A stretch of DNA of 64,000 nucleotides from an uncultured cyanobacterium. Lineage in GTDB: Bacteria > Cyanobacteriota > Cyanobacteriia > PCC-9006 > JAAUQQ01. Under the pieces are notes generated by a model that saw only the letters and a program-made list of their open reading frames with translations, did no database searches and was not told where the DNA came from. The DNA lies in NCBI GenBank assembly GCA_963718615.1, contig OY970368.1, forward strand, positions 4,032,001-4,096,000, read 5' to 3'. Shown one piece after another: positions 6,907 through 53,242 of this stretch. Numbering within the stretch: the stretch's first letter is position 1; each line of letters begins with the position of its first letter. Made by a program: the position numbers and the translations under genes.

Positions 6907-7356
6907 ATGACGCTGGATTCTCCGCAACCCGCCTCCGCCGGAACCGCAACCCTAAGCCGTACTGCCCAGCGCAGCGTCGCACCGGGCCTAGAGACGTCTC
7001 GTGCTGCCACTGCCCCCCGGCCCGATTGGCAGCCTGCCCTAGAGCTCCAAGAAACTGCTGATCGGATCTATGTGCAACTGCAACTACCGGGCTTTTGTCG
7101 AGAAGCAATCGAGATTCAGGCAACCCCCACCGATGTCATGGTCCGGGGAGCTCATTTTTCAGCCTATGGTTCCTCGAAAGGCTGCGTGCTGGCTTCAGAA
7201 TTTCACTACGGTCCGTTTGAACGGGTGATTTTGTTGCCCACTCGCATTGACCCGCAGCATAGCCAAGCGGACTTTCACCAGGGATTATTAACTTTGACGC
7301 TGACCAAAGCTACAGCCAAAGTGACAGCCAAAGTGACAGCCAAAGCGACGGCCTAA
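6907..7356 (+). CDS. Hsp20/alpha-crystallin small heat-shock protein
   Basis: WQPALELQET...LPG, SEFHYGPFERVILLP, GLLTLTL. GAGG RBS upstream. C-terminus is a 3x12-bp repeat (TAKV). Confidence 0.88.
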   Translation: MTLDSPQPASAGTATLSRTAQRSVAPGLETSRAATAPRPDWQPALELQETADRIYVQLQLPGFCREAIEIQATPTDVMVRGAHFSAYGSSKGCVLASEFHYGPFERVILLPTRIDPQHSQADFHQGLLTLTLTKATAKVTAKVTAKATA

Positions 7357-7387
7357 CCCAGTCAGCGCCTCACAAAATATTAGCCGC

Positions 7388-7678
7388 CTAGGCCAAGGTC
7401 GCTGTTGTGAAGCCACGCTCGCTGCCCCGATAGGTTGCAACGGTAGCGCGGCCCGTACCCCGATGACCCGCCAGGGTGGTCTGTGCTCTGCCGGTACCTC
7501 GGTAAGCCACGGTTTGTTCTGCTTGTTTTGCTTCGACCCGGCCCGTGCCACGATAGGCGAGGGTCGGGTTTTTGTCAGCAGCGGTGTTGATCGAGGAGTT
7601 GATCGAAAAACTGAGGGGAGTGGCGATCGCCAAAACAGCGAGAACAGCGACACGGGTTTGAAGGGTAGAAAACATCAT
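7388..7678 (-). CDS. Small secreted protein with four tandem PatS/PatX-like motifs (YRGTGR, YRGTGR, HRGTGR, YRGSER)
   Basis: ATG ATG at 7678/7675 preceded by AAGGA. Signal-peptide-like N-terminus (TRVAVLAVLAIATP). The motifs use different synonymous codons, which points to protein-level selection. Confidence 0.75.
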   Translation of the reverse strand: MMFSTLQTRVAVLAVLAIATPLSFSINSSINTAADKNPTLAYRGTGRVEAKQAEQTVAYRGTGRAQTTLAGHRGTGRATVATYRGSERGFTTATLA

Positions 7679-8169
7679 GATTATCCTTGCAGGGTTGGTT
7701 GATTTGCTTGTTTGACTTGCTTGTGGAGATCTACAAAACCCCGCCACTTTCTACGCACTGCACTGAAAATTTGATGTCGATTAAAAAATTGTTCTAAGGG
7801 TGATTCTTTCAGTGAAATTTTCGACGGTACCGAAAGTTGTCTAGGACAAATCACCTAGATATGATGTCTGTCTCCTAGGAAATTTCAGGAAAGATCAAGG
7901 GGAAACCCACCTACCCCCCGAGGAAAGCTGGGGACAGCTCACAGACTGGCTCTCGCCCCCGATCGCTTCATCCGATATCTGGGGAACGCTAAAACCAGAC
8001 CTAGCCATTTCTGTTTCTGTTGACAGGTTTTTTTGCTATGGCTTCTTTCCTGAAGCTTCCCTGCGAACCGTTGGCTTGGGGCGATCGCTCTACCAGAAAT
8101 CTCCGCAGTGCTCCGCCTATACCCGAAGGGTTAGGGGGTGGTGAAGCGGAGCGCGACCGCAGGAAGCAA

Positions 8170-8583
8170 CTAATCAATCTCGGCCTGCTGTTGAATATAT
8201 TGCCTGAGAACAGATATAGGGGCTCCGCCACAAGAAATAATGCAGTAGGAACGACTCCAAAAGATCGGCTTATCTCGGTAGATCTGATTAAGGTGTTCAC
8301 CAAACTCTTTCCTGATTAACCGACTAGAGACAGTTTTTAAGTTGTTCACCAACTTTGACGGCTGAACCTTGGGATTGATCGAGATAAGAAGATGAACATG
8401 GTCAGCCTCCCCATTAAACTCAAGCAGGTTGCCATCCCACTTAACGAGCGTCTGCGCGAATATCTCTCGCATTCTGTCCAGCATGGGTTTTGTGATGCAC
8501 TTTCGTCGGTACTTAGTGCAAGCGACTAAGTGGAATTGAAGATTATAGGAGCAGTGGTGGAGTGTATTTAACGGTTGCGACAT
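8170..8583 (-). CDS. tnpA: IS200/IS605 Y1 (HUH) transposase TnpA
   Basis: HLVACTKYRR, HUH motif DHVHLL, FWSRSY, catalytic Tyr in YIQQQ. Confidence 0.95.
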   Translation of the reverse strand: MSQPLNTLHHCSYNLQFHLVACTKYRRKCITKPMLDRMREIFAQTLVKWDGNLLEFNGEADHVHLLISINPKVQPSKLVNNLKTVSSRLIRKEFGEHLNQIYRDKPIFWSRSYCIISCGGAPISVLRQYIQQQAEID

Positions 8584-8610
8584 TGTAGGCGACTAAGCTA
8601 GAATAAGACC

Positions 8611-9798
8611 ATGCTAACACTGACCTATGAGTACAAACTGAAGCCAACCGCTCAGCAGATTGAGGAGCTAGAAAATAGCTTGGATGTTTGCCGAAAAGTC
8701 TGGAATTATGCCCTGAAAGAGCGCAAGGACTGGATTGCTTCAAGAAAGTGTCCTATCAATGCTTGCTCAATTCGGGGTGAGTACATCATGGCGGCGGATG
8801 CTCCCTATCCCGGTTTTGCTCACCAGTGCAAATCCCTGACCCAAGCCAAGAAGACTAATCCTGACCTCAAGTCTGTCAATGCTCAATCCCTTCAGCAAGT
8901 GCTGAAGACTTTAGAAAAAGCATTCAAGGATAAGGCAGAACGGGGGTTTGGGTTTCCTCGGTTTAAGAAGTCGGGGCAAATGAAGTCGTTTCTGTTTCCT
9001 CAATTGGGTAAGACTCCACTGGGAGACGGGTGGGTAAATCTTCCCAGTATTGGGAAAACTGCTATCCGGCAGTCTCGGCCCTATCCCGAAGGCTTCCAGG
9101 TGAAGCAGGCCAGGATAGTGAAGCGGGCGTCAGGGTTTTATGTGGTGCTCTGTTTTCAAGCGGAGTTGTCCATTCCCGATGTGCCATTGGTAGGTCAGTG
9201 TGTGGGTGTCGATGTAGGGTTGGAATATTTCCTGTCAGCCTCGGATGGCTTGCAAGTTCATTGTCCTCGGTTTTTCGTTGACCTGCAAAGCGAGCTGAAA
9301 TTGCTGCAACGCCGGTTGAAGAAAAAGGTGCTGGGGTCGAAGAACTGGAAAAAACTTCAACTCAAGATCGCAAAGCTGCATGAACGAATCAGCCACACTC
9401 GCAAGGATTTTCACTTCAAGATTGCTCATCTGCTCTGTGACCGGGGCGATGTGATTGCGGTGGAGAATCTGAATCTAGTGGGCTTGTCCCGTGGCATGTT
9501 GGGTAAACACATGCTCGATGCTGGATTGGGACAGTTCCTGAATCAGATTTTGCCTTGGGTTTGCTTCAAGCGAGGGAAGGGGTATCTGAAAGTGGATGCC
9601 CGTGGAACCTCTCAGCAATGTCCTGATTGTGGTCATGCTGTCAAAAAGCAGCTTTCAGACCGTTGGCATAGTTGTGCCCATTGCGGGTCATCAATGCCTC
9701 GGGATATTGCCAGCGCGATTGTGATTAAGCAAAGGGCCGTGGGGCGCACGGTTCAAGAAAAGGCTTGTGGAGACGGTCTAGCGGGGGTGGCGGCATGA
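8611..9798 (+). CDS. tnpB: RNA-guided endonuclease TnpB
   Basis: N-terminal YEYKLKPT, GFPRFKK, RuvC-I VGVDVG, RuvC-II AVENL, zinc finger CPDC...CAHC, RuvC-III RD. Confidence 0.95.
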   Translation: MLTLTYEYKLKPTAQQIEELENSLDVCRKVWNYALKERKDWIASRKCPINACSIRGEYIMAADAPYPGFAHQCKSLTQAKKTNPDLKSVNAQSLQQVLKTLEKAFKDKAERGFGFPRFKKSGQMKSFLFPQLGKTPLGDGWVNLPSIGKTAIRQSRPYPEGFQVKQARIVKRASGFYVVLCFQAELSIPDVPLVGQCVGVDVGLEYFLSASDGLQVHCPRFFVDLQSELKLLQRRLKKKVLGSKNWKKLQLKIAKLHERISHTRKDFHFKIAHLLCDRGDVIAVENLNLVGLSRGMLGKHMLDAGLGQFLNQILPWVCFKRGKGYLKVDARGTSQQCPDCGHAVKKQLSDRWHSCAHCGSSMPRDIASAIVIKQRAVGRTVQEKACGDGLAGVAA

Positions 9799-32325: not shown

Positions 32326-33471
32326 CTAACTACAGAGAGACTGCTGCCGGTCCATCTTGCCCACCAGAGCCAAAAGCTCATCGAGAGAAAGGTCGCGTTT
32401 GAGCTGGGTGGCGCGATCGCGAACCGCATATAACAGAGATTGGCTTTCCTCCTTATCTAAGACAATGCCATAACCTTGCAAAACCCAACCCAGCAGGTGT
32501 CGACCGGAATGTTTACCAATCACCAAACGTCGATGTCCTCCTACCTCTTCAGGATCAAAGGGTTCGTAGCTGTCGGGAGATTGCAAAACACCATGGGTAT
32601 GGATGCCGGATTCGTGGGCAAAGCTGTTTTGACCAACGATCGCTTTCCAAGGGGGAACCGGCGTATTAACTATTTTTGCCACAAAGCGGGATAAAGGTAA
32701 TAACTGTTGCGTTCGAATTCCAGTTTTCAATCCATAAATCTGTTTGAGCCCCATAACCACCTCTTCAAGGGCAGCATTTCCGGCCCGTTCTCCCAATCCA
32801 TTAACCGTAGTGTTCACTGAAGTTGCGCCCGCACGAACCCCGGCAAGGGCATTCGCAGTAGCTAAACCCAAGTCGTTGTGCGTGTGCATTTCGATAGGGA
32901 TATCCAGCGCGGCCACCAACTTTTGAATCTTATTAAAGGTGGAGAATGGATCCAAAATGCCGACGGTATCACAAAAGCGAAAGCGGAATGCTCCCCACTC
33001 CTGGGCAAACTGAGCCACGTCAAGCAAAAAGTTTTCGTCTGCGCGTGAACTGTCTTCCCCCCCAATACTGACTTCAAGGCCATGGTCGCGTGCAAAGGTA
33101 ATCACATTTCGCAATTGCTCCAGCATGTAAGACCAACGTCCCTGAAATTTAATTTGAATCTGGCTATCGGAAACGGGAATTGAAATATGAACTCGTTTGA
33201 GCCCACAGTAAATTGAAGCTTCGACATCTGCAATAACGGCACGATTCCAGCCTAAAAGTTGAGCATTGAGACCCAGATCGACGATGGCTCGAATAGAGTC
33301 GGCTTCTTCTCGTCCCATAATGGGAATGCCGACTTCTAATTCTTGTACCCCAAGGGTATCGAGAAATTGAGCGATCGCAACCTTTTCTTCAAGCCCAAAG
33401 GCAACACCTGCGGCCTGTTCACCATCCCGCAGGGTGGTATCGTTGATGGAGATAGAGGAGGAGGTTGTCAT
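32326..33471 (-). CDS. nifV: Homocitrate synthase
   Basis: [30 protein letters not shown]. Confidence 0.95.
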
Positions 33472-34208
33472 GGCACCAAGGGGGAGGAAAAGGATTCGGT
33501 CAGGGTTTGGAGTTGTTGTTCGAGGACTTCGATTCGATCGATTAGTTGGCGTAGGGTTGTCGCCTCAACATCAGGAAGCTGGCCATGCTCTAGCGGTGTC
33601 CTTTGGGTGTTGCAGCCACAAACATTGCGGCTGGGCACGCCGACAGCGGTGCAGTTGGCGGGGATATCTTTGAGGACAATGGAACCCGCACCAATCCGGG
33701 CGCGATCGCCGACCTGAATATTACCCAGAATTTTGGCTCCAGCACCAATCACAACGTGACTTCCCACCGTAGGATGACGTTTACCGGTTTGTTTACCGGT
33801 ACCGCCCAGGGTAACGCCTTGGTAAATCAGCGTGTAGTCTCCCACAATCGCCGTTTCACCGATGACAACGCCCATGCCGTGATCAATAAATAAACCTCGA
33901 CCAAGCTGAGCAGCGGGATGAATTTCGATCCCCGTTAAGAGGCGACTGACGTGAGCAATCAGACGAGGCAAAAAGCTAACTCCCCGCTGGTGGAGCCAAT
34001 GGGCTAGGCGATGGGCTGTGATGGCATGAAGACCGGGATAACAGCAGAGTACTTCTAACCAATGGTGAGCAGCGGGATCCCGCTCGAAGATAATATTGAA
34101 ATCGTCCCAGGTTAAACATTGATGGGTTAGGCGACGGGTCAAGCGGATCAAGTTATTCCGAAGGTTAACGCGGGGTAGACCCGCAAAACAATGGGCGGAT
34201 AGAAACAT
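33468..34208 (-). CDS. nifP: Serine O-acetyltransferase (nif-associated)
   Basis: [29 protein letters not shown]. Divergent from nifB and overlapping the nifV start. Confidence 0.93.
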
Positions 34209-34303
34209 GGCGGCGGTGAGGTGCGTTTATTTGCTTATAGCAGCCATGGGATTTGGGCGATCGCTCCCTCAAGCCCATCCGAATTCACTAGAATGATTAC
34301 CGC

Positions 34304-34971
34304 TGTACTCACCGCCTCAATCGCTGATAGGATAAGGCTTAGATTTTTTCTCTAGGGGATAGGTACGAGAATTTTAGGGCTTACGACCAGGTATTTTTGC
34401 AGGAGGGGACAGGTATTCTGTACTCAACCCTCTCTTCCTTTCCCGTCGGTTTTTAGTGCTTAATCAGGCAAAACCAAACACCTGCTTTTGATGTACTCAA
34501 AGTGCTAAGCACTAAAATCTTTCCAAGCACTCGGAGAGAGTAATGGTTAAAAGTGTAGCAGATTTGGCAGATTTTCCCGATAACGCTTTAGCAAGCCTTA
34601 AGCTTGAAATGGGTCTGGATGGATTACCTTTACAGATTTTAACAAGCAAACGGTGACGGTTGTTACGAAAGAATTTAAAATATGAAGTAGTCGATACAGA
34701 AAGATCTCGGTTGAAGTTTTTGAGCAATAATCCTGATATGAAGTTTGCATCAAAAGTGACAAAACTGATTCATTTGAGTACTCAAGATTTGGCTTCGAGA
34801 AAAGTCGCTAAAGTGGCCTAAATCCCTTACAGAACAAGGAAAGTAGCTGAGTACAACAATCATCGAACAAAGGCAAGAAAAAGCTAGTTCATTCTCTTGA
34901 AAATACCTGTGCCCTAATCCCCAAAAAAAATTCCTATTCTAGGGCTGTAAGGGTTTCAAGGACTGAGTACA
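34304..34971. promoter_or_regulatory. Divergent nifP/nifB promoter region with six TGAGTAC boxes (CnfR-type)
   Basis: TGTACTCA at 34304, 34419 and 34492. Palindrome TTGAGTACTCAA at 34774-85. TGAGTACA at 34848 and 34964. TGAGTAC-like motifs are known upstream of CnfR-dependent nifB genes. Confidence 0.8.
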
Positions 34972-35077
34972 GTGCTAATCATTTAATCAATCCTATCGGC
35001 TTCCGGCCAGGAGGCTGCCAGGGATAGTGTTGCTATAACGTCTTCAACGTCCAGCACTCCCTCACCTCCTGAAGCCC

Positions 35078-36538
35078 ATGACGCCTCCGCAAGAAACAGT
35101 TTTATTGGACAAAACATCGGAGAACTGCGGCTGTAGCACAAAAAACGATGCTCCTAACGGCATTAGTGAAGCCATGCAGGCCCGCATCGATAAGCATCCC
35201 TGCTACAGCGAAGAAGCTCACCATCACTACGCCCGCATGCATGTTGCTGTGGCTCCTGCCTGCAATATTCAATGTAACTACTGCAACCGTAAGTATGACT
35301 GTGCGAATGAAAGTCGTCCTGGTGTAGTGAGTGAACTCCTAACCCCTGAAGAAGCCGCCCATAAGGTTCTCGTGGTTGCGGGTAAAATCCCTCAAATGAC
35401 AGTGCTTGGCATCGCCGGACCGGGTGATCCCCTGGCCAACCCGGAAAGAACCTTCCGCACGTTTGAGCTGATTGCAGAGCAGGCTCCTGATATTAAACTT
35501 TGCCTCTCTACCAATGGCTTGATGCTGCCCGACTATGTTGATCGCATCAAACAGCTCAATGTTGACCATGTCACGATCACCATTAATATGGTTGATCCTG
35601 AAATTGGAGAAAAAATCTATCCCTGGGTGCACTACCGCCGCAAGCGCTACCGGGGCATCGAAGGGGTTCGCATTCTGCACGAGCGCCAAATGGAAGGATT
35701 GGAAGCCCTCCGGGATGCGGACATTCTCTGTAAAGTCAATTCAGTGCTAATTCCCGGTGTGAATGATGAACATATGCCAGAGGTGAATAAGGCCATTCGC
35801 GATCGCGGAGCTTTCCTTCACAATATTATGCCCTTGATTTCAGCCCCAGAGCACGGGACCTACTTTGGCCTCAATGGTCAACGCGGACCCAATCCCAAGG
35901 AACTGAAAGCGGTCCAAGATAAGTGCTCTGGCAACATGAAGTTGATGCGTCACTGTCGTCAATGTCGGGCAGATGCCGTGGGATTATTGGGTGAAGACCG
36001 CAGCCAAGAATTCACCAAAAATAAGTTTATGGAAATGACGGCGGATTACGACCTTGAAAAGCGTCAAGCCGTGCATCTGGGTATCGAGCATGCCAAAGCT
36101 GTAGTGGCTGAGAAAAAGCAGGCCAGCACGGCTCAGGTTCAACTTCCAGGTCACAGCTCTCCCAAAATTTTGGTTGCCGTTGCATCTAAAGGTGGCGGAT
36201 TGGTCAATCAACATTTTGGCCATGCTAAGGAATTCATGATTTATGAAGTCGATGCCATGGAAGCGAAGTTTGTGAGCCACCGCAAAGTGGCAGATTATTG
36301 CCAAGGGGGCTACGGCGAAGAGGCTATGCTCAAGGGCATTATCGAGACGATTTCCGACTGTACTGCTGTTCTTGCAGCTAAGATTGGCCCCTGCCCTCAG
36401 AAAAAGCTTAAAGCGGCAGGGCTCAAAGTCGTTGAAGCCTACGACGTGATTGAAACCGTTGCCCGACAGGTTTATGACGAGCAGTTTTTGAATCAACCCC
36501 TGTCCTGCGAACTGCCTCAGCCTCAATCTGTTTGCTAG
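35078..36538 (+). CDS. nifB: Nitrogenase cofactor biosynthesis radical-SAM protein NifB
   Basis: [21 protein letters not shown] and a C-terminal NifX-like domain (HFGHA). Confidence 0.98.
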
Positions 36539-36609
36539 CCAACTCAGCGCAAATCTACAGCAAATTCACAGTAAATTCACAGCAAAACCGTTTAAGGAGG
36601 AAGCGAGCC

Positions 36610-36999
36610 ATGGGCTATACCATCACCGAAGACTGTATTGGATGCCAACGCTGCCTGTCCGTCTGTCCCAAAGGCGCAATTGAAACCGATGGCTCGCGTT
36701 TTTGGATTGAAGTTAGCCGTTGCGACCAATGCCAAGACTCCTATGGTCTTTCCCAATGCTGGGCTATCTGCCCCACGAACGAAGGCTGTATTCCCTTAAC
36801 CCGCGTTACAGAAACTTACCTGACTCATCCTGTCGGAGATTACTGGGAATCTTGGTTTTCCACCTACGAACAGCTTTTGACTCGACTGAAAAGTAAGCAG
36901 CGATCGCCTTACTGGCAACAGTGGTTTAACTTGTATTCACAACGTCTGCATTCACTTCAAACCCAAGACTCTTCAGCAAATTTATCCGTTTCAATCTAA
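36610..36999 (+). CDS. fdxN: Ferredoxin FdxN
   Basis: AAGGAGG RBS, CIGCQRCLSVC and CDQC...CWAICP motifs. Lies between nifB and nifS. Confidence 0.88.
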   Translation: MGYTITEDCIGCQRCLSVCPKGAIETDGSRFWIEVSRCDQCQDSYGLSQCWAICPTNEGCIPLTRVTETYLTHPVGDYWESWFSTYEQLLTRLKSKQRSPYWQQWFNLYSQRLHSLQTQDSSANLSVSI

Positions 37000-37081
37000 G
37001 TCACTTTCTGTTTTCTTCTCACCGTATTTGCAAGATTCTATCTCTTCCCTTTCCTCAAACACCCCCTGCGGAGCCCAAGCC

Positions 37082-38278
37082 ATGGTGATCTATTTCGATA
37101 ACAACGCCACCACCCAAATTGACCCAGTTGTGCTGGATGCCATGTTGCCCTATCTCAGCACGTTCTATGGCAATCCTTCCTCCATGCACAGCTTTGGAGG
37201 ACAGGTTGGGGCCGCAATTCAAAATGCCAGAGCTCAAGTGGCAGAACTTTTAGGGGCTGAAGATACGGAAATTGTATTTACAAGTTGTGGCAGCGAAAGC
37301 AACAATACCGCTATCCATGCAGCCCTCGCAGCTCAGCCCAAGAAGCGCCATATTGTTACTACGGCGGTTGAGCATCCTGCCGTCCTCAGCGTCTGTAAAC
37401 AGCTAGAGAAAAAAGGCTACAGCGTCACGTACCTCTCCGTGGATCGTCGGGGTCAGCTCGATCTCCTAGAGCTGGAGGCAGCCATGACCGGAGGCACGGC
37501 ATTGGTCACGACGATGTATGCCAACAATGAAACAGGCGTCATTTTCCCGGTAGAGCAGATTGGGGCGATCGCCAAAGAATACGGTGCCGTTTTCCATGTT
37601 GATGCCGTGCAGGCAGTCGGAAAGTTGCCTATCAATCTAAAATGTAGTACCATTGATTTGCTGACGCTCTCAGGCCATAAATTACACGCACCCAAGGGTA
37701 TTGGGGCACTCTATATTCGGCGAGGTTTCCATTTTCGTCCATTCCTCCTAGGAGGGCACCAAGAACGAGGACGACGAGCGGGCACCCAGAATGTTGCAGG
37801 AATTGTGGCTTTGGGTAAAGCGGCTGAGCTCGCCCACCAGCATCTGCCTCAGATCGGCCAAGAAGAAAGATTACGCAATCGGTTAGAAACACAACTGCTC
37901 TCCCTCATCCCTGATTGTGAGGTGAATGGTGCAGGCACTTCCCGTTTGCCCAACACGAGCAGTATCGGCTTTAAATACATCGAAGGAGAAGCAATTCTGC
38001 TCATGCTCGACAAGCATGAAATTTGTGCCTCCTCAGGGTCTGCCTGTACATCAGGCTCCCTCGATCCCTCCCATGTTTTGATGGCAATGGGGTTGCCCTA
38101 CACGATTTTGCACGGCTCGATTCGGTTCAGTTTGTCACGGTTTACTACAGAGGCCGAAGTCCAGCATGTGATCACTGTGATGCCAGAACTTGTCCAAAAA
38201 CTACGAGCTATTTCACCCTTTAATAATGATGAGTCCGATTGGCTACAAAGCCGTGATCTAGCTGTACAAACTGCATAG
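37082..38278 (+). CDS. nifS: Cysteine desulfurase NifS
   Basis: YFDNNATT, SGHKLH, SSGSACTS. Confidence 0.97.
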   Translation: MVIYFDNNATTQIDPVVLDAMLPYLSTFYGNPSSMHSFGGQVGAAIQNARAQVAELLGAEDTEIVFTSCGSESNNTAIHAALAAQPKKRHIVTTAVEHPAVLSVCKQLEKKGYSVTYLSVDRRGQLDLLELEAAMTGGTALVTTMYANNETGVIFPVEQIGAIAKEYGAVFHVDAVQAVGKLPINLKCSTIDLLTLSGHKLHAPKGIGALYIRRGFHFRPFLLGGHQERGRRAGTQNVAGIVALGKAAELAHQHLPQIGQEERLRNRLETQLLSLIPDCEVNGAGTSRLPNTSSIGFKYIEGEAILLMLDKHEICASSGSACTSGSLDPSHVLMAMGLPYTILHGSIRFSLSRFTTEAEVQHVITVMPELVQKLRAISPFNNDESDWLQSRDLAVQTA

Positions 38279-38340
38279 ATCTTCCCTCAATTCTCAATCT
38301 TATTAACTCGATTCTCCACTTCATCACCCCGGTAAAAGCC

Positions 38341-39213
38341 ATGTGGGACTATTCCGAAAAAGTACTTGAACTGTTCTATAATCCGATCAACCAAGGGGTG
38401 ATCGCTGAGCCAAACGAACCTGATATTGCAGTGGTCTACGGTGAGGTTGGTAGTATCTCCTGTGGTGATGCCTTACGGCTACATCTGAAGATTCAGGAAT
38501 CGACGGAAACTATTTTAGATTCCCGATTTCAGACCTTTGGTTGTACGAGTGCGATCGCCTCCTCATCCGCTTTAACTGAATTAGTCAAAGGTAAAACCCT
38601 TGACGAAGCCCTGCAAATTACCAATCAAGATATTGCTGCGTATCTCGGAGGCTTGCCAGAAGCCAAAATGCACTGTTCTGTCATGGGTCAAGAGGCCCTT
38701 GAAGCTGCGATTTATAAATATCGAGGCATCGAGGTAGAGCACCATGAGGATGACGAAGGCACAATTGTTTGCTCTTGCTTTGGCATCACTGAACCTCGCA
38801 TTCGTCGTGTCATTATCGAAAATGATCTTGACACCATCGAGCAAGTCACTAATTATATTAAGGCAGGCGGAGGTTGTGGATCTTGTCTAGCCAACATTGA
38901 CGATGTTCTCAGTGAAATTCGGCAAGAACGCACCGCCCTCTCAGCCCGTGTCGAGGCTGAAGTCGCAACAGCGCCACTAACACCCATTCAAAAGATTAAC
39001 CGCATTCAAACCGTCCTCTCCGAGGAAATTCGCCCAATTCTGATTGCTGACGGTGGCGATGTTGAACTCTACGACGTGAATGGCGACATCGTGCAGGTAC
39101 AACTTAAAGGCGCTTGTGGCTCCTGTGCCAGTAGCACAGCAACGCTGAAAGGCGCGATCGAAACTCGTCTCAGAGCCCATGTTTCCCCGACCTTAACGGT
39201 CGTCGCAGTTTAG
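38341..39213 (+). CDS. nifU: Fe-S scaffold NifU
   Basis: CGDAL, FGCTSA, KMHCS, CSC...GCGSC, GACGSC. Confidence 0.97.
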   Translation: MWDYSEKVLELFYNPINQGVIAEPNEPDIAVVYGEVGSISCGDALRLHLKIQESTETILDSRFQTFGCTSAIASSSALTELVKGKTLDEALQITNQDIAAYLGGLPEAKMHCSVMGQEALEAAIYKYRGIEVEHHEDDEGTIVCSCFGITEPRIRRVIIENDLDTIEQVTNYIKAGGGCGSCLANIDDVLSEIRQERTALSARVEAEVATAPLTPIQKINRIQTVLSEEIRPILIADGGDVELYDVNGDIVQVQLKGACGSCASSTATLKGAIETRLRAHVSPTLTVVAV

Positions 39214-39378
39214 TATTTTTGATCCATCTCTAGTTTTGTTTTAACTCTTTCTCAAGGCGGCCTTCACACCGCTGTTTAGCCCATGATCACGCTGCACAAG
39301 ACTTCTACCGTTGAGCGATCGCCTCCATCATCCAGATTATTGCCTCAACAAAAACCTAAATTCGCAACACGACCTTAA

Positions 39379-40269
<891 letters not shown>

Positions 40270-40273
40270 TTTC

Positions 40274-40359
40274 AAGTCGTCTGAGCCTGATCGGTACGGG
40301 TCCAAATCACCTGCGAGTTTGCCTAGGGACATCTCCCGTAACGGCTCAGACTACGACTT
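40274..40359 (+). other. Intergenic stem-loop between nifH and nifD (probable mRNA stabiliser or processing signal)
   Basis: AAGTCGT-CTGAGCC pairs with GGCTCAG-ACT-ACGACTT, and TACGGG pairs with CCCGTA. Confidence 0.55.
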
Positions 40360-40407
40360 CTTCGCTCGCCCAGCTAAATTAATCACTCCCGACTTAAAGA
40401 GGGCACT

Positions 40408-41853
40408 ATGGCCACCGTAGAAGACAAAAAGGCACTGCTCCAGGAAGTCCTGGACGCCTATCCAGATAAAGCTAAAAAAAGCCGTTCCAAGCACCTCAAT
40501 GTAACTGAAGAAGGCGCTTCCGACTGCGGCGTTAAGTCCAACAAAAAGTCCGTTCCTGGCGTCATGACTACCCGTGGCTGTGCCTATGCAGGGGCCAAGG
40601 GTGTGGTTTGGGGACCGGTCAAAGACATGATTCACATCAGCCATGGTCCAGTAGGTTGTGGCTACTACTCCTGGTCTGGACGCCGCAACTATTACATCGG
40701 CACCACTGGGGTAGATACCTTTGGAACGATGCAGTTTACCTCCGACTTCCAAGAGCGAGATATCGTCTTTGGAGGTGACAAAAAGCTCGATAAGTTGATT
40801 GATGAACTGGAAGATCTCTTCCCCCTCAGCAAAGGCACGACCATTGAGTCTGAGTGCCCTGTAGGCCTAATTGGAGATGACATCGAAGCCGTAGCCAAGA
40901 AAAAGGCTAAGGAATACAGTAAGCCTGTCGTACCGGTTCGCTGCGAAGGTTTCCGGGGCGTTTCTCAATCCCTCGGCCACCACATTGCTAACGACACCGT
41001 GCGAGATTGGGTTCTACCCAAAGCGGAGGAATACCGCCAATTACCCGAAGGCTTTAAACCGAGTCCCTACGACGTCAACATTATTGGGGACTACAACATT
41101 GGGGGAGATGCTTGGCCCAGCCGCCTCCTGCTAGAAGCGATCGGCCTACGCGTGATTTGCCAATTCTCCGGTGATGGCACATTCAACGAAGTCGTCATGA
41201 CTCCCTTGGCCAAGTTAAATTTGATCCACTGCTACCGTTCCATGAACTACATCTGTCGGTTTATGGAAGAGAAATATGGCATTGGTTGGTTGGAATACAA
41301 CTTCTTTGGTCCTACCGAAATTGCCACGTCTCTGCGCAAGATTGCCGCTCAGTTTGATGAAACTATCCAAGAAAAGGCAGAGCAGGTCATCGCCAGTTAT
41401 CAGGCTCGGATGGATGCGGTCGTTGAAAAATATCGCCCTCGCTTAGAAGGTAAAGAAGTCATGATGATGGTGGGAGGTCTACGTCCTCGCCACATTATTC
41501 CAGCCTTTGAAGACCTTGGCATGAAAGTCATTGGCACTGGCTATGAATTTGGTCACGGTGATGACTATAAACGGACGGCTGAGTATGTAGATGAAGGCAC
41601 TGTCATCTATGACGATGTTAGCGGGTTTGAATTCGAGGAACTGGCGAAGAAACTTCAGCCAGACCTGATTGCCGCTGGCATCAAGGAAAAGTATGTCTTC
41701 CAGAAAATGGCGCTGCCCTTCCGTCAGATGCACTCCTGGGATTACTCCGGCCCTTATCACGGTTACGACGGCTTTGAAGTCTTTGCCCGCGACATGGACT
41801 TAGCCATTAACAATCCCACCTGGGGACTGATCAATCCTCCCTGGCAACAGTAA
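40408..41853 (+). CDS. nifD: Nitrogenase MoFe protein alpha chain
   Basis: RGCAYAG, HGPVGC, FeMo-co ligands HCYRS and MHSWDY. Uninterrupted. Confidence 0.99.
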
Positions 41854-41873
41854 CGACCCACTAGGAGACTATC

Positions 41874-43442
41874 ATGACTGAGAATACCAATTCCCAGGTC
41901 CCGGAAAATACACCGGAGCTGGGCCAAGTGAAAGATCACTTTGATCTATTCCATACCCAAACCTATCAGGATCTTTTCGAGTACAAGCGTCAATTTGAAG
42001 GCGCTCACAGCCGCGATAAAGTTGCCGAAGTTGCTGAATGGACTAAAGGCTGGGAATACCGGGAAAAGAACTTTTCACGGGAGGCTCTCACGATCAACCC
42101 AGCTAAAGCCTGCCAGCCGCTCGGATCGCTCTTTGTTGCCTCTGGATTTGAAGGGACGTTGCCCTATAGCCATGGCTCCCAAGGTTGCGTCGCCTATTTC
42201 CGGACCCACCTAACTCGCAACTACAAAGAACCCTTCCAAGCGGTTTCATCTTCGATGACAGAAGATGCAGCTGTTTTTGGTGGACTGAGCAACCTCAAGC
42301 AAGGATTGGAAAACGCCTACAAGCTATACAATCCCAAGATGATCGCGCTCTGCACGACCTGTATGGCAGAGGTCATTGGAGACGACATTAGCTCCTTTAT
42401 CCAAACCGCCAAAAACGAGGAATTAATCCCACAAGATCTACCAGTACCTGCGGCTCATACACCTAGCTTTGTCGGCTCCCATATTACGGGTTATGACAAC
42501 ATGCTTTTGAGCATTTTGAAGACGCTCACTGCAGGCAAAAAGACAGAAGCTAGCAATGGAAAGTTCAACTTCAACTTAGGGTTCGATCCCTATATCGGTA
42601 ATATTCGAGAGTTGAAGCGAATCCTCAGCCTTTTTGGCATCGACTACACGATTCTTTCAGACAACTCCGATACGTTTGATTCTCCCAACACAGGTGAATT
42701 CAAAATGTATAATGGGTTAACAACTCTGGAGGATGCTGCCGATTCTATTAACGCAGAAGGAAGTTTCTTCTTCCAAACCTACACCACTCCCAAAACTCAA
42801 GAATACGTTGTCAAAGAATGGGGTCAAAAGACTTACAATTTCCGACCTTTTGGGATTCAGGGCACTGATGAATTTCTGATGGCTTTGTCTGCGATTACGG
42901 GTAAGGCAATTCCACTGGAGCTTCAGCAAGAGCGAGGGCGTGCCGTTGATGCACTAACCGACTCTCAATCCTGGATTCATGGTAAACGTGTTGCGCTCTA
43001 TGGCGATCCCGACCTGGTCATGGGTCTGATTCGCTTCCTCCTAGAAATGGGAGCTGAGCCGGTTCACATTGTTGTCACCAATTCTAACGAAGGGTTTGAA
43101 GCCGAGGCTCGTGAGCTGCTAGCGAGCAGTCCCTATGGCCAAGGCGCAACTGTGTGGGGTAAGAAGGATCTGTGGCACTTGCGATCGCTCATGTTCACCG
43201 AGCCCGTCGATTTATTGATTGGCAACTCCTACGGCAAGTATCTCTGGCGCGATACAGGTACTCCCTTGGTTCGCATTGGCTATCCGATTTTCGATCGCCA
43301 TCACATGCACCGCTATCCAACCCTAGGGTACCAAGGTGCGATCAACCAGTTCAACTGGATTATCAATACGATTCTGGACGAACTCGATCGCAATACGATT
43401 ATCCCCGCAAAAACGGACATCTCGTTCGATTTGATTCGTTAG
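41874..43442 (+). CDS. nifK: Nitrogenase MoFe protein beta chain
   Basis: PAKACQPLG, HGSQGC, TTCMAE. Confidence 0.99.
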   Translation: MTENTNSQVPENTPELGQVKDHFDLFHTQTYQDLFEYKRQFEGAHSRDKVAEVAEWTKGWEYREKNFSREALTINPAKACQPLGSLFVASGFEGTLPYSHGSQGCVAYFRTHLTRNYKEPFQAVSSSMTEDAAVFGGLSNLKQGLENAYKLYNPKMIALCTTCMAEVIGDDISSFIQTAKNEELIPQDLPVPAAHTPSFVGSHITGYDNMLLSILKTLTAGKKTEASNGKFNFNLGFDPYIGNIRELKRILSLFGIDYTILSDNSDTFDSPNTGEFKMYNGLTTLEDAADSINAEGSFFFQTYTTPKTQEYVVKEWGQKTYNFRPFGIQGTDEFLMALSAITGKAIPLELQQERGRAVDALTDSQSWIHGKRVALYGDPDLVMGLIRFLLEMGAEPVHIVVTNSNEGFEAEARELLASSPYGQGATVWGKKDLWHLRSLMFTEPVDLLIGNSYGKYLWRDTGTPLVRIGYPIFDRHHMHRYPTLGYQGAINQFNWIINTILDELDRNTIIPAKTDISFDLIR

Positions 43443-43451
43443 TTCATAGAC

Positions 43452-43478
43452 GCAGAGATGTACACCGTACATCTCTGC
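43452..43478 (+). terminator. Perfect 12-bp hairpin after nifK (attenuator or stability element)
   Basis: GCAGAGATGTAC-ACC-GTACATCTCTGC. There is no U-tract, so readthrough to nifZ/nifEN is likely. Confidence 0.6.
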
Positions 43479-43500
43479 CTCGTAATCACAGGAATAGGTT

Positions 43501-43788
43501 ATGCGCTTAAGTGAAGAAGTTGAACTTGATTCTCCTCCCCATTTTGATATGGGCCAACGGGTCCGAGTTTTGAAACTCATCCGCAACGATGGTACTTTTC
43601 CCGGCAAAGATATTGGCTTTCATCTCGCCAAAAAAGGCGATATTGGTTATATCGTTGGCATTGGTACCTACTTGCAACGGGCCTATATTTACTCAGTCCA
43701 TTTCCTAGAAAGTAACTATGTCGTAGGCTGCCTCAGTCGAGAACTCGAACTTGCGGAAGATCGGCAGCCTTTAATTCCCCAAGAATAA
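43501..43788 (+). CDS. nifZ: NifZ
   Basis: IRNDGTFPG, GTYLQ, VVGC. Confidence 0.93.
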   Translation: MRLSEEVELDSPPHFDMGQRVRVLKLIRNDGTFPGKDIGFHLAKKGDIGYIVGIGTYLQRAYIYSVHFLESNYVVGCLSRELELAEDRQPLIPQE

Positions 43789-43807
43789 TTCTCTCCCTGA
43801 GGTTCCT

Positions 43808-44098
43808 ATGACCCGTTTTCTGGCTCCTTCCCAAGTTTTGTTACCAACGCTTCGTATCCAACCACTCGCGCCTTTCAGGGCTTGGATTAATAGAATTGAA
43901 GTCCACCAGAGTTGGTTTGCCCGTTGGGTTTGTCGACTAGTCCCTAATGTTTGTTCCAGGGGCTATGACCTACGATGCCTAGGTTATACGATTTTGCATT
44001 TACCCTCACTGTGCAAACTCAATCCCCTGTATGACGAACTGCTGGATTTGCGGTTTCGGGCCGCTGAATTTCTCTATGAACAGTCTGGAAGCGATTAG
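43808..44098 (+). CDS. 'Mo-dependent nitrogenase C-terminal domain' family small protein
   Basis: LCKLNPLYDELLDLRFRA signature. Confidence 0.8.
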   Translation: MTRFLAPSQVLLPTLRIQPLAPFRAWINRIEVHQSWFARWVCRLVPNVCSRGYDLRCLGYTILHLPSLCKLNPLYDELLDLRFRAAEFLYEQSGSD

Positions 44099-44149
44099 CT
44101 TATCTCGCCAACGCTTGATGTAACGCATTCCCACTCACCTGCGATCGCC

Positions 44150-46885
44150 ATGAAAATGACCCCTGGCACAATGAATGAATTATTGACCCAGCCTGGTTGT
44201 GAACACAATCACAAGAAAAACGGCAAGGGACATCATAAAGCTTGTCAGCAGCAGGCTAAGCCCGGAGCTGCTCAAGGGGGCTGTGCTTTTGATGGAGCTA
44301 GTATTGCGCTGGTGCCGATTACCGATGTAGCGCATCTAGTACATGGTCCGATCGCCTGTTCAGGCAATTCTTGGGGTGGACGAGGGAGCCTGTCTTCGGG
44401 ACCTATGCTCTACAAAATGGGCTTTACAACCGATCTGAGCGAAAACGACATTATTTTTGGTGGGGAAAAGAAGCTCTTTCAGGCCATTCAAGATATTCAA
44501 GCCCGCTACCAACCTGCCGCAGTTTTTGTCTATTCTACCTGTGTCACAGCCTTGATCGGAGATGATCTGAATGCAGTCTGTAAGGCAGCAGCGGAGAAGC
44601 TTGAGATTCCAGTTGTTCCCATTCATTCTCCGGGTTTTGTCGGGAGTAAAAATCTAGGCAATCGCCTAGCGGGAGAGGCGTTGCTAGAGCATGTCATTGG
44701 AACAACTGAGCCCGAATATACAACTCCATACGATATCAATCTGATTGGAGAGTACAACATTGCAGGTGAACTATGGGGCGTTTTGCCCTTGTTTGAAAAA
44801 CTTGGTATTCGGGTTTTAGCCAAAATTACAGGAGATGCCCGCTATCAGGAAGTGGCCTATGCCCATCGAGCTAAACTCAATGTGATGATCTGCTCAAAGG
44901 CGCTGATCAATTTGGCCCATAAGATGCAGGAGCGCTATGGTGTTCCTTACATTGAAGAATCCTTCTACGGTGTAGAAGATCTCAATCGTTGTTTACGAAA
45001 CATTGCTGCAAAGCTCGGAGATGAAGACTTAAAGGCACGGGTAGAAACCTTGATCGCCGAGGAAACGGCTAAGCTTGAACAGGCTATTGCACCCTATCGC
45101 GATCGCCTTCAGAACAAGCGGGTAGTTCTCTATACCGGTGGTGTCAAGAGTTGGTCTATCATCTCTGCGGCTCAAGACTTAGGGATTCGAGTCGTTGCTA
45201 CCAGCACTCGCAAGAGCACGGAAGAGGACAAAGCACGCATCAAAACGCTGTTGGGCGAAGACGGCATAATGATGGATAAGGGAGGCGCGACGGAACTGCT
45301 GCGAGTGATTGAGCAAACCCAGGCCGATCTGTTAATTGCTGGAGGACGAAACCAGTACACCGCCCTCAAAGCCCGAATTCCATTCCTCCACATCAACCAA
45401 GAGCGTCACAATCCTTACTCGGGTTATGGCGGTTTGTTGGAGATGGCAAAGGAATTGGACGAAACCTTGCATAGTCCAGTCTGGGGTGAAGTCAGGCAGC
45501 TTGCCCCCTGGGATGCCTCTTCCGGTCTCACAGCACCGCAATCCTCAGTTGCACCCACTACTGTAGTCGCCCGCAGAAAAGCTGTCACCGTCAATCCCCT
45601 CAAACAGAGTCAACCCCTTGGAGCGGCTCTAGCCTTCCTAGGGATCCAGGGTGCAATGCCACTTTTCCATGGTTCGCAAGGCTGCACAGCCTTTGCCAAG
45701 GTGTTGCTGGTTGGACATTTTCAGGAATCAATCCCACTGGCAACCACCGCCATGGGAGAAGTCAGCACAGTCCTGGGAGGGGATGAGAATGTCGAAATTG
45801 GCATCATGACGATTATTGAGAAAAACCAACCGGAACTGGTTGGACTCTTCACGACAGCCTTAACAGAAACCCGAGGCGATGACATGAAGGGAATTTTGCG
45901 CGAGTTCCATCAAGCGCATCCTGAAGTGAATTTGCCAGTTGTTTTTGCATCTACACCGGACTACAAAGGAAGTTTACAGGATGGATTTGCGGCTGCGGTG
46001 GAAAGCTTGGTGCAAACCCTGCCAGAAGCCGGGGACGTCAATCCTCGACAGGTCACGCTACTCGCCAGTTCTGCCTTAGGTCCAGCGGATGTGGAGGAGC
46101 TCAAGGAAATCGTGGAATCCTTTGGCCTAAGCCCCATTGCGGTCCCCGACCTTTCTACCTCCCTAGATGGTCATCTAGACGATGCAGACCACTATACAAC
46201 TCCGACGGGCGGCACGACGGTAGAGCAACTGCGGGCCGTAGGTCGCTCGGCCCTGACGCTGAGTTTGGGAGGGAGTATGGCAGGGGCCGCTGAAATTTTA
46301 ACCCAGCGATTTGGGACGCCTGTGGCTCAGCTTGACCAGGTGACGGGATTAGGAGCCGTTGATCGCTTCCTCCAGACCCTAGCTCAACTTAGTGGTCAAC
46401 CGGTCCCGGCCAAATATCAGCGTCAGCGACGGCAGTTGCAAGATGCCATGCTCGATACCCACTTTTATTTCGGTCGAAAACGGATTGCGATCGCCCTCGA
46501 ACCCGATTTACTCTACAACATTGCCTGGTGGATCCACAGCACTGGCGCTGAAATTCAGGCTGCCGTAACCCCAATCCAGTCTCCCTTACTCAAAACCCTG
46601 CCGCTGGAAAAAGCCTATATCGGTGATTTTGAGGATTTTGAAAACCTTGCCGCCGGAGCCGATTTATTGATTACCAACTCTAAGGCCCGACCTCTTGCCC
46701 ACCGCTTGAATATTCCCCTCTACCTCCATGGATTTCCCATGCTAGAGCAACTGGGTAATGGCCAACGGTGCACTGTAGGGTATCGCGGCACGATGAAGCT
46801 CCTGTTTGACATTGGCAACTTGTTACTAGAGGCCGATGAAGCACGAGTTCATCAGTTGGTTCACCACTGGCGGGATGGACAATGA
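44150..46885 (+). CDS. nifEN: Fused FeMo-cofactor scaffold NifEN
   Basis: NifE half (GGCAFDGA, HGPIAC, YTGGVKSWS) is continuous in frame with the NifN half (NPLKQSQPLGA, HGSQGC). Confidence 0.96.
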   Translation: MKMTPGTMNELLTQPGCEHNHKKNGKGHHKACQQQAKPGAAQGGCAFDGASIALVPITDVAHLVHGPIACSGNSWGGRGSLSSGPMLYKMGFTTDLSENDIIFGGEKKLFQAIQDIQARYQPAAVFVYSTCVTALIGDDLNAVCKAAAEKLEIPVVPIHSPGFVGSKNLGNRLAGEALLEHVIGTTEPEYTTPYDINLIGEYNIAGELWGVLPLFEKLGIRVLAKITGDARYQEVAYAHRAKLNVMICSKALINLAHKMQERYGVPYIEESFYGVEDLNRCLRNIAAKLGDEDLKARVETLIAEETAKLEQAIAPYRDRLQNKRVVLYTGGVKSWSIISAAQDLGIRVVATSTRKSTEEDKARIKTLLGEDGIMMDKGGATELLRVIEQTQADLLIAGGRNQYTALKARIPFLHINQERHNPYSGYGGLLEMAKELDETLHSPVWGEVRQLAPWDASSGLTAPQSSVAPTTVVARRKAVTVNPLKQSQPLGAALAFLGIQGAMPLFHGSQGCTAFAKVLLVGHFQESIPLATTAMGEVSTVLGGDENVEIGIMTIIEKNQPELVGLFTTALTETRGDDMKGILREFHQAHPEVNLPVVFASTPDYKGSLQDGFAAAVESLVQTLPEAGDVNPRQVTLLASSALGPADVEELKEIVESFGLSPIAVPDLSTSLDGHLDDADHYTTPTGGTTVEQLRAVGRSALTLSLGGSMAGAAEILTQRFGTPVAQLDQVTGLGAVDRFLQTLAQLSGQPVPAKYQRQRRQLQDAMLDTHFYFGRKRIAIALEPDLLYNIAWWIHSTGAEIQAAVTPIQSPLLKTLPLEKAYIGDFEDFENLAAGADLLITNSKARPLAHRLNIPLYLHGFPMLEQLGNGQRCTVGYRGTMKLLFDIGNLLLEADEARVHQLVHHWRDGQ

Positions 46886-46968
46886 AACCATTTGTCAAGG
46901 ATTGAAATAAGCCCCTCAAATGACCCAATTGACCCACCTACTGTTTATTGAATCCAAAGGAGATTCCC

Positions 46969-47394
46969 ATGAAAATAGCCTTTGCCACGAATGATGCTGT
47001 TCATATTAATGCTCACTTTGGCTGGGCCAGTCGCATTGATGTCTATGACGTTGATACTGAAAGGTACACCTTTTTAGAAACTTTAGCGTTTCAGGGCGAC
47101 CTCAAAGAAGACGGCAATGAAGACAAACTAGAACCGAAACTACAAGCTTTAGCCGACTGCACCATTGTCTACGTTTCCGCGATCGGAGGCAGTGCTGCCG
47201 CCCGTCTGATTCGGAAAAATATTACCCCTATCAAGGCCCAATCCGAAGCAGACGAAATTGAGGATGTGCTCACTCGACTGGTACAAACCCTCAACGGCAG
47301 TCCCCCTCCTTGGCTACGCAAGGCCCTGCTCAAAAGCCAACCCCACACCTTTGAAACTGAGTTTGAAACCATCGAAGAGGAAATTTTAGTATGA
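46969..47394 (+). CDS. nifX: NifX
   Basis: AAGGAG RBS, MKIAFAT...NAHFG, IGGSAAA. Confidence 0.94.
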   Translation: MKIAFATNDAVHINAHFGWASRIDVYDVDTERYTFLETLAFQGDLKEDGNEDKLEPKLQALADCTIVYVSAIGGSAAARLIRKNITPIKAQSEADEIEDVLTRLVQTLNGSPPPWLRKALLKSQPHTFETEFETIEEEILV

Positions 47395-47903
47395 GTCCTG
47401 TTAAAACCCCCACCCCATCCGCTACCACTCTCAATACTCCCAATGAAGCCTTGGCCGCTACCTTAGTAGTTGATAGCTCCCTCTTTCTCAAGGCATTAGT
47501 CCAGCAAATTCGTGCGAATGATGCCTATGGTACTTATCGGAATTGGGCTGACCATTTGCTACTCAAGCCCTATATCCTATCCAAGAAAGAGCGCCGGGAT
47601 ATTTCTGTCGAAGGCGATGTCGATCCCATTACGTTAGGACGAATTTTAGGGTTTTATCGGGCGATCGCCGCTCGCATTGAAGAAGAAACCGGTCAACTTT
47701 CCCAGGTCGTCATTGATTTAAGTCATGAAGGTTTTGGCTGGGCCTTGATCTTCTCCGGTCGTTTAATTCTAGTCTCTAAGACACTGCGCGATGCTCAACG
47801 CTTTGGTTTTGATTCCCTAGAGAAACTTCATGCCGAAGGTGAAAAGCTTGTACAAAAAGGCGTTGAGCTGGGTAATAAATTTCCGGAGGTTTGTAATCTT
47901 TAA
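47391..47903 (+). CDS. NifX-associated protein (DUF269)
   Basis: IRANDAYG, SHEGFG, LRDAQRFGF. Confidence 0.9.
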   Translation: MSPVKTPTPSATTLNTPNEALAATLVVDSSLFLKALVQQIRANDAYGTYRNWADHLLLKPYILSKKERRDISVEGDVDPITLGRILGFYRAIAARIEEETGQLSQVVIDLSHEGFGWALIFSGRLILVSKTLRDAQRFGFDSLEKLHAEGEKLVQKGVELGNKFPEVCNL

Positions 47904-52161: not shown

Positions 52162-52419
52162 ATGGAACCCTCTGTAGATTCAATATCTCCCCGTCAAGCT
52201 AGCTATTTAGAGTTAATTGATCGCCTCCTCCAATGCCCCAACGGCAAAGAGCCTGAGATTCTAGATGCTTCGCGTGAGCTTTTAGATGCGGGTTTTGTTC
52301 AATCTTTGATGCAGACAGCTAGCTATTTTGCCCATCAAGATAATACTGATGCGGCTAGATTTCTGGTCTTTCTTGCCCGAGAATTGTCCCATCAGCTTAA
52401 TCTCTATCCTCAACCCTAG
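52162..52419 (+). CDS. Small conserved cyanobacterial hypothetical protein
   Basis: YLELIDRLLQCPNGKEPEIL...LLDAG resembles a repeat recalled from the N-termini of cyanobacterial TPR/CHAT proteins. Confidence 0.7.
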   Translation: MEPSVDSISPRQASYLELIDRLLQCPNGKEPEILDASRELLDAGFVQSLMQTASYFAHQDNTDAARFLVFLARELSHQLNLYPQP

Positions 52420-52429
52420 GAGATTCCCT

Positions 52430-53242
52430 ATGTCTAGGCTCAAACGTCGGTTTTTAGTTTCTCTGCTCATTGGAGTCTGCTCCTGTCTGCTTGCTTTGGG
52501 ATGTGGCCTAACATCATGGATGCTCAATAGCGAGAGTGTTGTCGCAAAACCGATTAATCTCACTGTGTCCGCTGCGGCGAGTTTGCAAGACGCACTGAAA
52601 GCCATTGAGCCTCAATTTCGACAAACCCATGCCGAGAGATCCGTAGATTATAATTTTGGAGCCTCTGGTGCACTGCAACGGCAGATTGAACAAGGAGCCC
52701 CTGCCGATATCTTTTTCTCTGCCGCGTCCAAGCAAATGGATGCTCTCGCCCAAAAAGGCTTGATTCTACCCAGTTCTCGTCGCAATCTCCTGACTAATCA
52801 GCTAGTTTTAATCGCGCCTAAAAACTCCTCCTTAAAAATCACAAACTTGGCCCAACTCAAAGATGTTCCGATTAAACACTTTGCCGTTGGTGAATTTAGA
52901 AGTGTTCCTGCGGGTCAATATGCCGAACAGGTTTTTAAGAAATTTGGTTTGCTCAATACGCTGCAACCTAAGTTTGTCTTTGGTAACAACGTCCGTACTG
53001 TGCTAGCTGCGGTTGAAAGTGGAAATGCAGACGTTGGTATGGTTTATGCAACGGATGCAGCACTCTCTAATCGAGTTAAGGTCTTAATCACTGCTCCTGC
53101 ACGTTCCCATGACCCCATTGTGTATCCCATTGCGGTCTTAAAGCGAAGCTCTAATCCTAAGGCGGCTCAAGAATTTATCGATTTTCTGGTGACTGATGCG
53201 GCCCAAGCCGTTTTCAAAAAGTTTGGGTTTAGTCGCTTTTAG
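52430..53242 (+). CDS. modA: Molybdate ABC transporter substrate-binding protein
   Basis: AGGAG RBS, VSAAASL, FGASGAL, VPAGQYA, VYATDA. Confidence 0.95.
   Translation: MSRLKRRFLVSLLIGVCSCLLALGCGLTSWMLNSESVVAKPINLTVSAAASLQDALKAIEPQFRQTHAERSVDYNFGASGALQRQIEQGAPADIFFSAASKQMDALAQKGLILPSSRRNLLTNQLVLIAPKNSSLKITNLAQLKDVPIKHFAVGEFRSVPAGQYAEQVFKKFGLLNTLQPKFVFGNNVRTVLAAVESGNADVGMVYATDAALSNRVKVLITAPARSHDPIVYPIAVLKRSSNPKAAQEFIDFLVTDAAQAVFKKFGFSRF

Follow-up and report, generated by a model that had tools for sequence, protein, structure and literature searches.

The analysis of a 64,000-nt stretch of cyanobacterial DNA (the window) reveals a small gene, P0001, whose product carries three tandem copies of an RGTGR-type hexapeptide and a closing YRGSER unit behind a predicted signal peptide. 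We are highly confident, from sequence features and relatives, that this open reading frame is a real gene and that it encodes a multi-unit, PatX-like protein predicted to be exported. We assign a probability of about 0.5 to the more specific reading, drawn by analogy with Nostoc PatX, in which this protein would be an exported polyprotein precursor of HetR-binding hexapeptides. The textbook activator-inhibitor pair of bacterial patterning is HetR with its RG(S/T)GR inhibitors, and the locus bears on the role of this pair in filamentous cyanobacteria without heterocysts. Our findings suggest that a HetR inhibitor can be encoded as a multi-copy polyprotein predicted to be exported, both here and beside hetR in at least two other families. 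The features discussed below are listed in Table 1.

Table 1. Positions of the features of P0001 and of two related genes (window coordinates unless a locus or contig is named)
Feature	Position	Strand	Remarks
P0001, coding sequence including stop codon	7388..7678	-	96 codons plus TAG; ATG at 7678
AAGGA, Shine-Dalgarno-like	7684..7688	-	5 nt before the P0001 ATG
Unit 1, YRGTGR (residues Y42-R47)	7538..7555	-	preceded by T-L-A
Unit 2, YRGTGR (residues Y59-R64)	7487..7504	-	preceded by T-V-A
Unit 3, HRGTGR (residues H72-R77)	7448..7465	-	identical to the published HetR inhibitor PatX6 (passages of PMC12756182)
Terminal unit, YRGSER (residues Y83-R88)	7415..7432	-	G-F comes next, then a tail of 8 residues with L-A at its end
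Predicted Sec signal peptide (residues 1-25)	7604..7678	-	hydrophobic core, -3/-1 rule; cleavage uncertain (S25 or A34)
Upstream block (GACA ... CGTAGA ... TGTAGA), probable promoter/operator, without TCCGGA	7725..7780	-	from alignment with paralogues
Weak terminator-like hairpin with T-rich tail	7380..7396	-	overlaps the stop codon
P0005, second member in the window's genome, 140 aa	G000:C1:2698285-2698704 (L023:386-805)	-	downstream of chlN, outside the window
L047 precursor, eight copies	L047:1339-1710	-	among the hetR-linked loci L039-L062

A predicted exported protein with repeated units

The reading frame of P0001 was confirmed because its homologues show the same architecture. The sequence-only reading had described a 96-aa ORF with a ribosome-binding site and a signal-peptide-like N-terminus, and both elements were recovered, the first as AAGGA and the second as an N-terminus with Sec-type features. 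A single basic residue (Arg) precedes a hydrophobic core of about 11-13 residues, residues 10-20 form the most hydrophobic 11-mer of the protein (mean Kyte-Doolittle value 2.84), and small residues at -3 and -1 provide candidate cleavage sites at 25/26 and 34/35. The signal peptide was judged by these rule-based features (hydrophobicity and the -3/-1 rule). The four motif positions given by the sequence-only reading proved exact at all four coordinates, and its statement that T-[LV]-A precedes each copy holds in part: the triplet abuts copies 1 and 2, but it is separated from copies 3 and 4 by a Gly and a Thr, respectively.

A DNA-level repeat origin of the units was considered and rejected, since the codons differ between copies (as had already been noticed), no exact repeat within the gene exceeds 9 nt, the longest one falling outside the motifs, and Tandem Repeats Finder returned no array across the motifs. 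Five Arg codons (CGT, CGA, CGG, AGA, and CGC) occur within the motifs of this one gene. When all six frames of the complete 6.10-Mb genome were scanned, RG[ST]GR turned up in 80 stop-to-stop segments, 79 of which hold a single copy; P0001, with three, is the sole segment with more than one, which excludes a chance origin of its motifs. A Pfam search gave no match for P0001, and in ESM Atlas a PatX cluster ranked first at 0.82, a value below the level that counts and thus a lead only. The hairpin at the 3' end is weak evidence for a terminator, because three such sites occur in the region against 1.3 expected.

A family of multi-unit proteins and its closing unit

A word-indexed search returned a single homologue of P0001, P0002 (36% identity), which contains RGTGR five times and likewise ends in YRGSERGF...LA, and a search of genome contigs with a two-row alignment returned one locus, L032. 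Such genes are carried by all seven genomes of the window's family, two to four in each and 22 in all, and every one of the 22 combines a signal-peptide-like N-terminus with tandem phi-A-[Y/F/H]-R-[G/A]-[S/T]-G-R-phi units. A second unit class, Y-R-[G/A]-S-E-R-G-phi, closes each module. As the proposal of a peptide precursor presupposed, the motifs are kept in homologues while the spacers diverge, both in sequence and in length (2-45 residues). Among 86 units in 21 same-family genes, Arg is written in five codons and Gly in four, and this free variation of the motif codons indicates that selection acts on the peptide and not on the DNA.

A family profile was built from 21 members and compared by hmmsearch with 1.84 billion representative proteins at E <= 0.001, which yielded 150 proteins, 143 of them no longer than 200 aa. 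At least two units were found in 134 of these 143 short matches, with modes of three and four, and an N-terminal 11-mer with a mean Kyte-Doolittle value of at least 1.6 in 130. SER-type units are present in 24 of the 143 and stand last in 22 of those 24, for which reason we regard YRGSER, in which the sequence-only reading saw a possible tuning or decoy peptide, as a conserved punctuation unit and not as a decayed copy; the view of the terminal motif as a degenerate fourth copy is thus abandoned. P0001 itself, with the unit pattern g-g-g-S, shows the signal peptide, the two or more GR-type units, and the closing SER unit that define the family. Wherever the source name of a family member was consulted, the entry read "hypothetical protein" or gave none.

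The context and composition of the units provide further insight into what may be conserved. Of 516 GR-type units, 308 have Ala at -1 and 456 have I, L, V, or F after the last Arg, a context that fits defined cleavage sites. Both Arg residues and the Ser/Thr are the invariant positions of the units. The consensus of the family as a whole, R[GA][ST]GR together with R[GA]SER, is wider than the HetR ligand: in the SER-containing proteins (those of the window's family), 45 of 82 GR-type units have Ala instead of Gly at motif position 2, and positional orthologues downstream of dapB within one genus carry four RGTGR units in one case and YRASGR, HRATGR, and YRASGR in the other. This drift toward RA[ST]GR implies that the common target of the family need not be HetR.

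Conservation extends upstream of the gene, where short-type paralogues of another genus share conserved blocks within the 100 nt before P0001, so the promoter region of P0001 looks intact. In the short-type upstream block (window 7725-7780 on the minus strand, and L004, L018, L005, and L019), a GACA accompanies two GTAGA elements spaced by about 20 nt, with no match to the sigma-HetZ consensus.

Multi-copy PatX proteins beside hetR

The distribution of the family was investigated by running the profile over 401 genomes of the class, of which 45 matched. By family, the matches comprise 7/7 genomes of the window's own family, 27/39 of family f9, 9/39 of f15, and 1/17 of f11, with none in the other families. 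hetR is present in 211 of the 401 genomes and in 44 of the 45 profile-positive ones, the exception being a 62%-complete genome that is also the only profile match among the 190 genomes without hetR; because the matches fall in only four families, this agreement is a co-distribution with hetR and not a statistical test. The suggested co-occurrence of multi-motif ORFs with hetR is borne out to that extent.

Outside the window's family, 22 loci were examined, and these show a signal peptide followed by two to eight units, mostly strict [H/Y/D/E]RG[ST]GR, with spacers down to four residues. In 19 of the 22, the gene for a signal-peptide protein with three to eight copies directly precedes hetR in the same orientation; the remaining three are a locus truncated where its contig stops and two RASGR/RGSGR-type genes not linked to hetR. 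These 19 hetR-linked loci show that multi-copy PatX is a natural form, common outside the heterocyst-formers, and the single motif that the sequence-only reading took for granted in PatX is consequently not general across cyanobacteria. In the literature searched, including passages of PMC12756182, PMC7761841, PMC11298460, PMC5812504, PMC7377430, PMC7476756, PMC13342950, and PMC12669612, multi-copy RG(S/T)GR precursors receive no mention; the original PatX description and its supplements were outside that scope and may contain multi-motif PatX.

The hetR-linked multi-motif PatX proteins of f9 and f15 (eight copies in L047, four in P0026) share with P0001 the signal peptide, the tandem phi-A-[YH]RG[ST]GR-phi units, and short variable spacers, and they are retrieved by the window-family profile with E-values down to 1e-18. 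Unlike that of P0001, their genes are the immediate upstream neighbors of hetR, and TCCTGA-N16-TGAA is present at -60 in at least one case. SER-type units are absent from this type (one among the 119 proteins outside the SER class), and Ala at motif position 2 is rare in it (39/434 units).

Comparison of P0001 with known HetR inhibitors

By the Elhai & Khudyakov (2018) definition, restated in passages of PMC11298460 and PMC7761841, PatX has an RG(S/T)GR motif, a hydrophobic N-terminus or Sec signal, a gene directly before hetR, and a DIF1 promoter. P0001 resembles PatX in being small, in its hydrophobic Sec-type N-terminus, and in its [H/Y]RG(S/T)GR motifs, and each is found only alongside hetR (for the P0001 family, 44 of 45 genomes). 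The likeness is closest in the peptides themselves, since copy 3 is the HRGTGR of PatX6 and units 1 and 2 differ from it only in the first residue, whose side chain is indifferent to binding (see below).

Several differences set P0001 apart. In place of one motif it has three ligand copies and a YRGSER unit; the nearest hetR (hetR1) lies 1.97 Mb away, and the canonical position before that gene is filled by another ORF, which ends in HRGSGRK. No TCCGGA-N16-17-TGNA (DIF1/sigma-HetZ) element, allowing up to one mismatch, occurs within 300 nt upstream of P0001, and the NCBIfam PatX model NF047413 scores it at 12.5 bits (E 0.19) against a cut-off of 30. That model is narrow, for it also misses the genome's own hetR-linked patX, and a hetR-linked protein with four copies reaches 26.2 bits. 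Overall, P0001 is not a canonical patX: it is unlinked to hetR, lacks the TCCGGA promoter, and scores below the cut-off. The proposal of a multi-copy precursor of HetR ligands, made by the sequence-only reading, is accordingly upheld in one part, in that such precursors are a natural design elsewhere with three to eight copies beside hetR, but not in another, as P0001 is without these patX hallmarks.

Other inhibitors are more distant. PatS and HetN share the HetR-inhibiting RGSGR pentapeptide, but PatS is a cytoplasmic peptide of 13-17 aa and HetN a reductase-like protein with one internal ERGSGR (passages of PMC7761841 and PMC5812504), and neither is a Sec-exported multi-copy precursor. An "alternative PatS" with a proline-rich stretch before its Y/HRGSGR motif is described in passages of PMC5812504; such a stretch is absent from P0001, which has one Pro in its mature part.

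A sigma-HetZ promoter signature in the long-type genes

The second family member of the window's genome, P0005, belongs to a long type and has four YRA[ST]GR and two YRGSERG units. All seven long-type genes, drawn from three genera and including P0005, have an invariant TTCCGGAC with TCCGGA at exactly -65, and TCCGGA-N16-TGTA is present in six of the seven, the match in P0005 being exact. Passages of PMC13342950 give a consensus of TCCGGA-N16-17-TGNA type for promoters recognized by sigma-HetZ, which drives patS, patX, and hetR in Anabaena (passages of PMC13342950 and PMC7377430). The window's genome contains hetZ (NF037963, 625 bits against a 550-bit cut-off). As a predicted promoter signature, this long-type element ties the family to the core HetR circuit, and for part of the family it makes this connection in a nitrogen fixer that lacks heterocysts.

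The hetZ and HetZ-related loci (G000:C1:159571-163834 and 4265503-4266855) show a 376-aa ORF without family match after hetZ, possibly patU, and a HetZ-related-2 gene 2 kb from hetZ; a second HetZ-related gene reaches 607 bits, just under the 612-bit cut-off. A search for the HetR-binding palindrome, aimed at locating hetZ, returned one site inside a 1500-aa ORF and was uninformative; hetZ was found by the NCBIfam models.

HetR receptors and a proposed mechanism

Two hetR genes are present in the genome (Pfam PF03574, 251 and 243 bits), so the candidate receptor whose presence the sequence-only reading presupposed exists in duplicate. Upstream of hetR1 lies a canonical single-motif patX, an ORF of 46 aa whose N-terminus is hydrophobic and whose product ends in HRGSGRK; it has a TCCTGA-N17-TGAA element at -66. 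Upstream of the HetR2 genes, no RG(S/T)GR ORF was found. HetR2 (L002, G000:C1:369117-370076) has 59% identity to HetR1, and its docking strand reads R-A-L-E-A-F-D in four orthologues from three genera (L002, L064, L067, and L069), compared with R-[IV]-L-E-[EQ]-L-D in HetR1.

Hu et al. (passages of PMC4649674) describe the hexapeptide as a beta-strand lying against beta3 of the HetR hood domain, where E253, D270, and D278 are contacted by its Ser and both Arg residues, E254 and D256 hold the free amine at its N-terminus, and R223 is close to the carboxylate at its C-terminus. From the residue that precedes RG(S/T)GR, only the main-chain amine takes part, the side chain being indifferent (PMC4649674), so either Y or H should serve. 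HetR1 keeps all six contact residues (R223, E253, E254, D256, D270, and D278) and HetR2 five, with E254A; R223, E253, D256, D270, and D278 are invariant in 25/25 HetR proteins from genomes carrying such genes. The need for both a free amine and a free carboxylate would require precise excision of the hexapeptide from its precursor. Passages of Xu et al. (PMC12756182) report that HRGTGR binds Nostoc HetR with a KD of 88 nM and abolishes its DNA binding, that PatX needs Sec export to act, and that the periplasmic peptidase PatP matures it.

From Nostoc PatX and sequence conservation we infer export, cleavage, uptake, and binding as the steps of a possible mechanism for P0001. As a PatX-like paralogue, P0001 would be exported by the Sec pathway via its N-terminal signal peptide and cleaved in the periplasm into two YRGTGR peptides, one HRGTGR, and a C-terminal piece containing YRGSERG, the presumed cleavage sites being marked by Ala at -1 and, behind the final Arg, by a hydrophobic residue. 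The hexapeptides would then be taken up again by the filament's cells and, on binding to the hood domain in HetR1 and possibly HetR2, would release HetR from DNA, as PatX6 does in Nostoc. With three ligand copies per protein, one precursor could deliver three inhibitor doses.

Yeast alpha-factor and neuropeptide precursors likewise have a signal peptide, several peptide copies, spacers, and proteolytic release, with cleavage at dibasic sites. P0001 would follow the same logic without homology, with Ala (-1) and a hydrophobic residue (+1) marking the cuts in place of dibasic sites and, unlike the eukaryotic precursors, with an intracellular transcription factor as its proposed target.

Alternative explanations

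An alternative that we consider possible, though rather doubtful, is that P0001 would be exported as a peptide signal or as a protein of the periplasm, but that its repeats would address something other than HetR, for instance a receptor or sensor in the periplasm; its resemblance to RG(S/T)GR would then come from common ancestry with PatX and not from a common target. The breadth of the family consensus, the swap of RGTGR for RASGR or RATGR between positional orthologues, and the unlinked, TCCGGA-free position of P0001 would all suit such a target, as would the transcriptomes of patX, hetR, and double mutants of Leptolyngbya BL0902, which suggested that PatX acts largely independently of HetR (passages of PMC11298460). 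The invariant positions of the units, however, are those whose side chains contact HetR, the family is found only in hetR-bearing families, the long-type paralogues have the sigma-HetZ promoter consensus, and copy 3 is exactly a proven HetR inhibitor. A quite unlikely alternative is a ligand set divided between two receptors, in which RGTGR-only precursors such as P0001 would serve HetR1 and the RA[ST]GR/RGSER precursors would serve or antagonize HetR2. The distinct docking strand shared by HetR2 orthologues of three genera, together with the two ligand classes and two precursor architectures found in every genome of the window's family, is consistent with this division; against it, unlinked RASGR-type genes occur in two genomes of another family with a single hetR match (G245 and G293), and the co-distribution has no statistical weight, since the pattern goes back to a single origin in a single lineage.

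Two further explanations were rejected as very improbable. Cyanobacteria have known multi-core RiPP precursors, and the repeated short cores and variable spacers of P0001 have the look of a RiPP-type precursor whose cores are modified by a dedicated enzyme, but its N-terminus is a Sec-type signal peptide and not a leader, and no conserved maturase-like neighbor occurs across five loci (with neighbors such as HSP20 and the IS element, dapB, chlN, and an RTX protein). The idea of a chance ORF or a decaying, functionless paralogue draws on the IS200/IS605 element about 490 nt upstream of P0001, and it is countered by the intact frame with its Shine-Dalgarno sequence, the architecture kept in relatives under free synonymous variation, the upstream block kept across genera, and the 150 proteins retrieved at E <= 0.001 among 1.84 billion representatives.

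Significance and genomic surroundings

Within one lineage, the multi-copy form has been expanded into unlinked paralogues whose motifs vary, with G or A at position 2 and G or E at position 4. These natural variants offer a ready-made series for the study of HetR ligand specificity and of precursor processing. A far-reaching extension, which we judge unlikely, is that the early-branching filamentous cyanobacteria of the window's family would run a peptide code on the HetR circuit, with several polyprotein precursors under their own promoters and different hexapeptides (RGTGR from P0001, RA[ST]GR from the sigma-HetZ-driven long type) addressing two HetR paralogues, and with YRGSERG acting as module terminators, processing signals, or antagonists. 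If true, multi-copy, multi-ligand morphogen precursors would predate heterocysts.

In the window, an HSP20-family gene (6907-7356, plus strand) is convergent with the precursor gene, and its C-terminus contains a 12-nt tandem repeat (4.2 copies, 7304-7353) encoding a T-A-K-V repeat. The IS200/IS605 element (8170-9798) lies between the precursor gene and aspS and comprises a Y1 transposase (8170-8583, minus strand) and TnpB/OrfB (8611-9798, plus strand). The description of the organism as a diazotroph agrees with the uninterrupted nif cluster at 32326-47903, which holds nifV, nifB, fdxN, nifS, nifU, nifH, nifD, nifK, a 911-aa protein, and DUF269; the 911-aa protein has two nitrogenase component-1 domains and is apparently a fused nifE-nifN. 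Molybdate-type ABC genes follow the cluster at 52328-55160.
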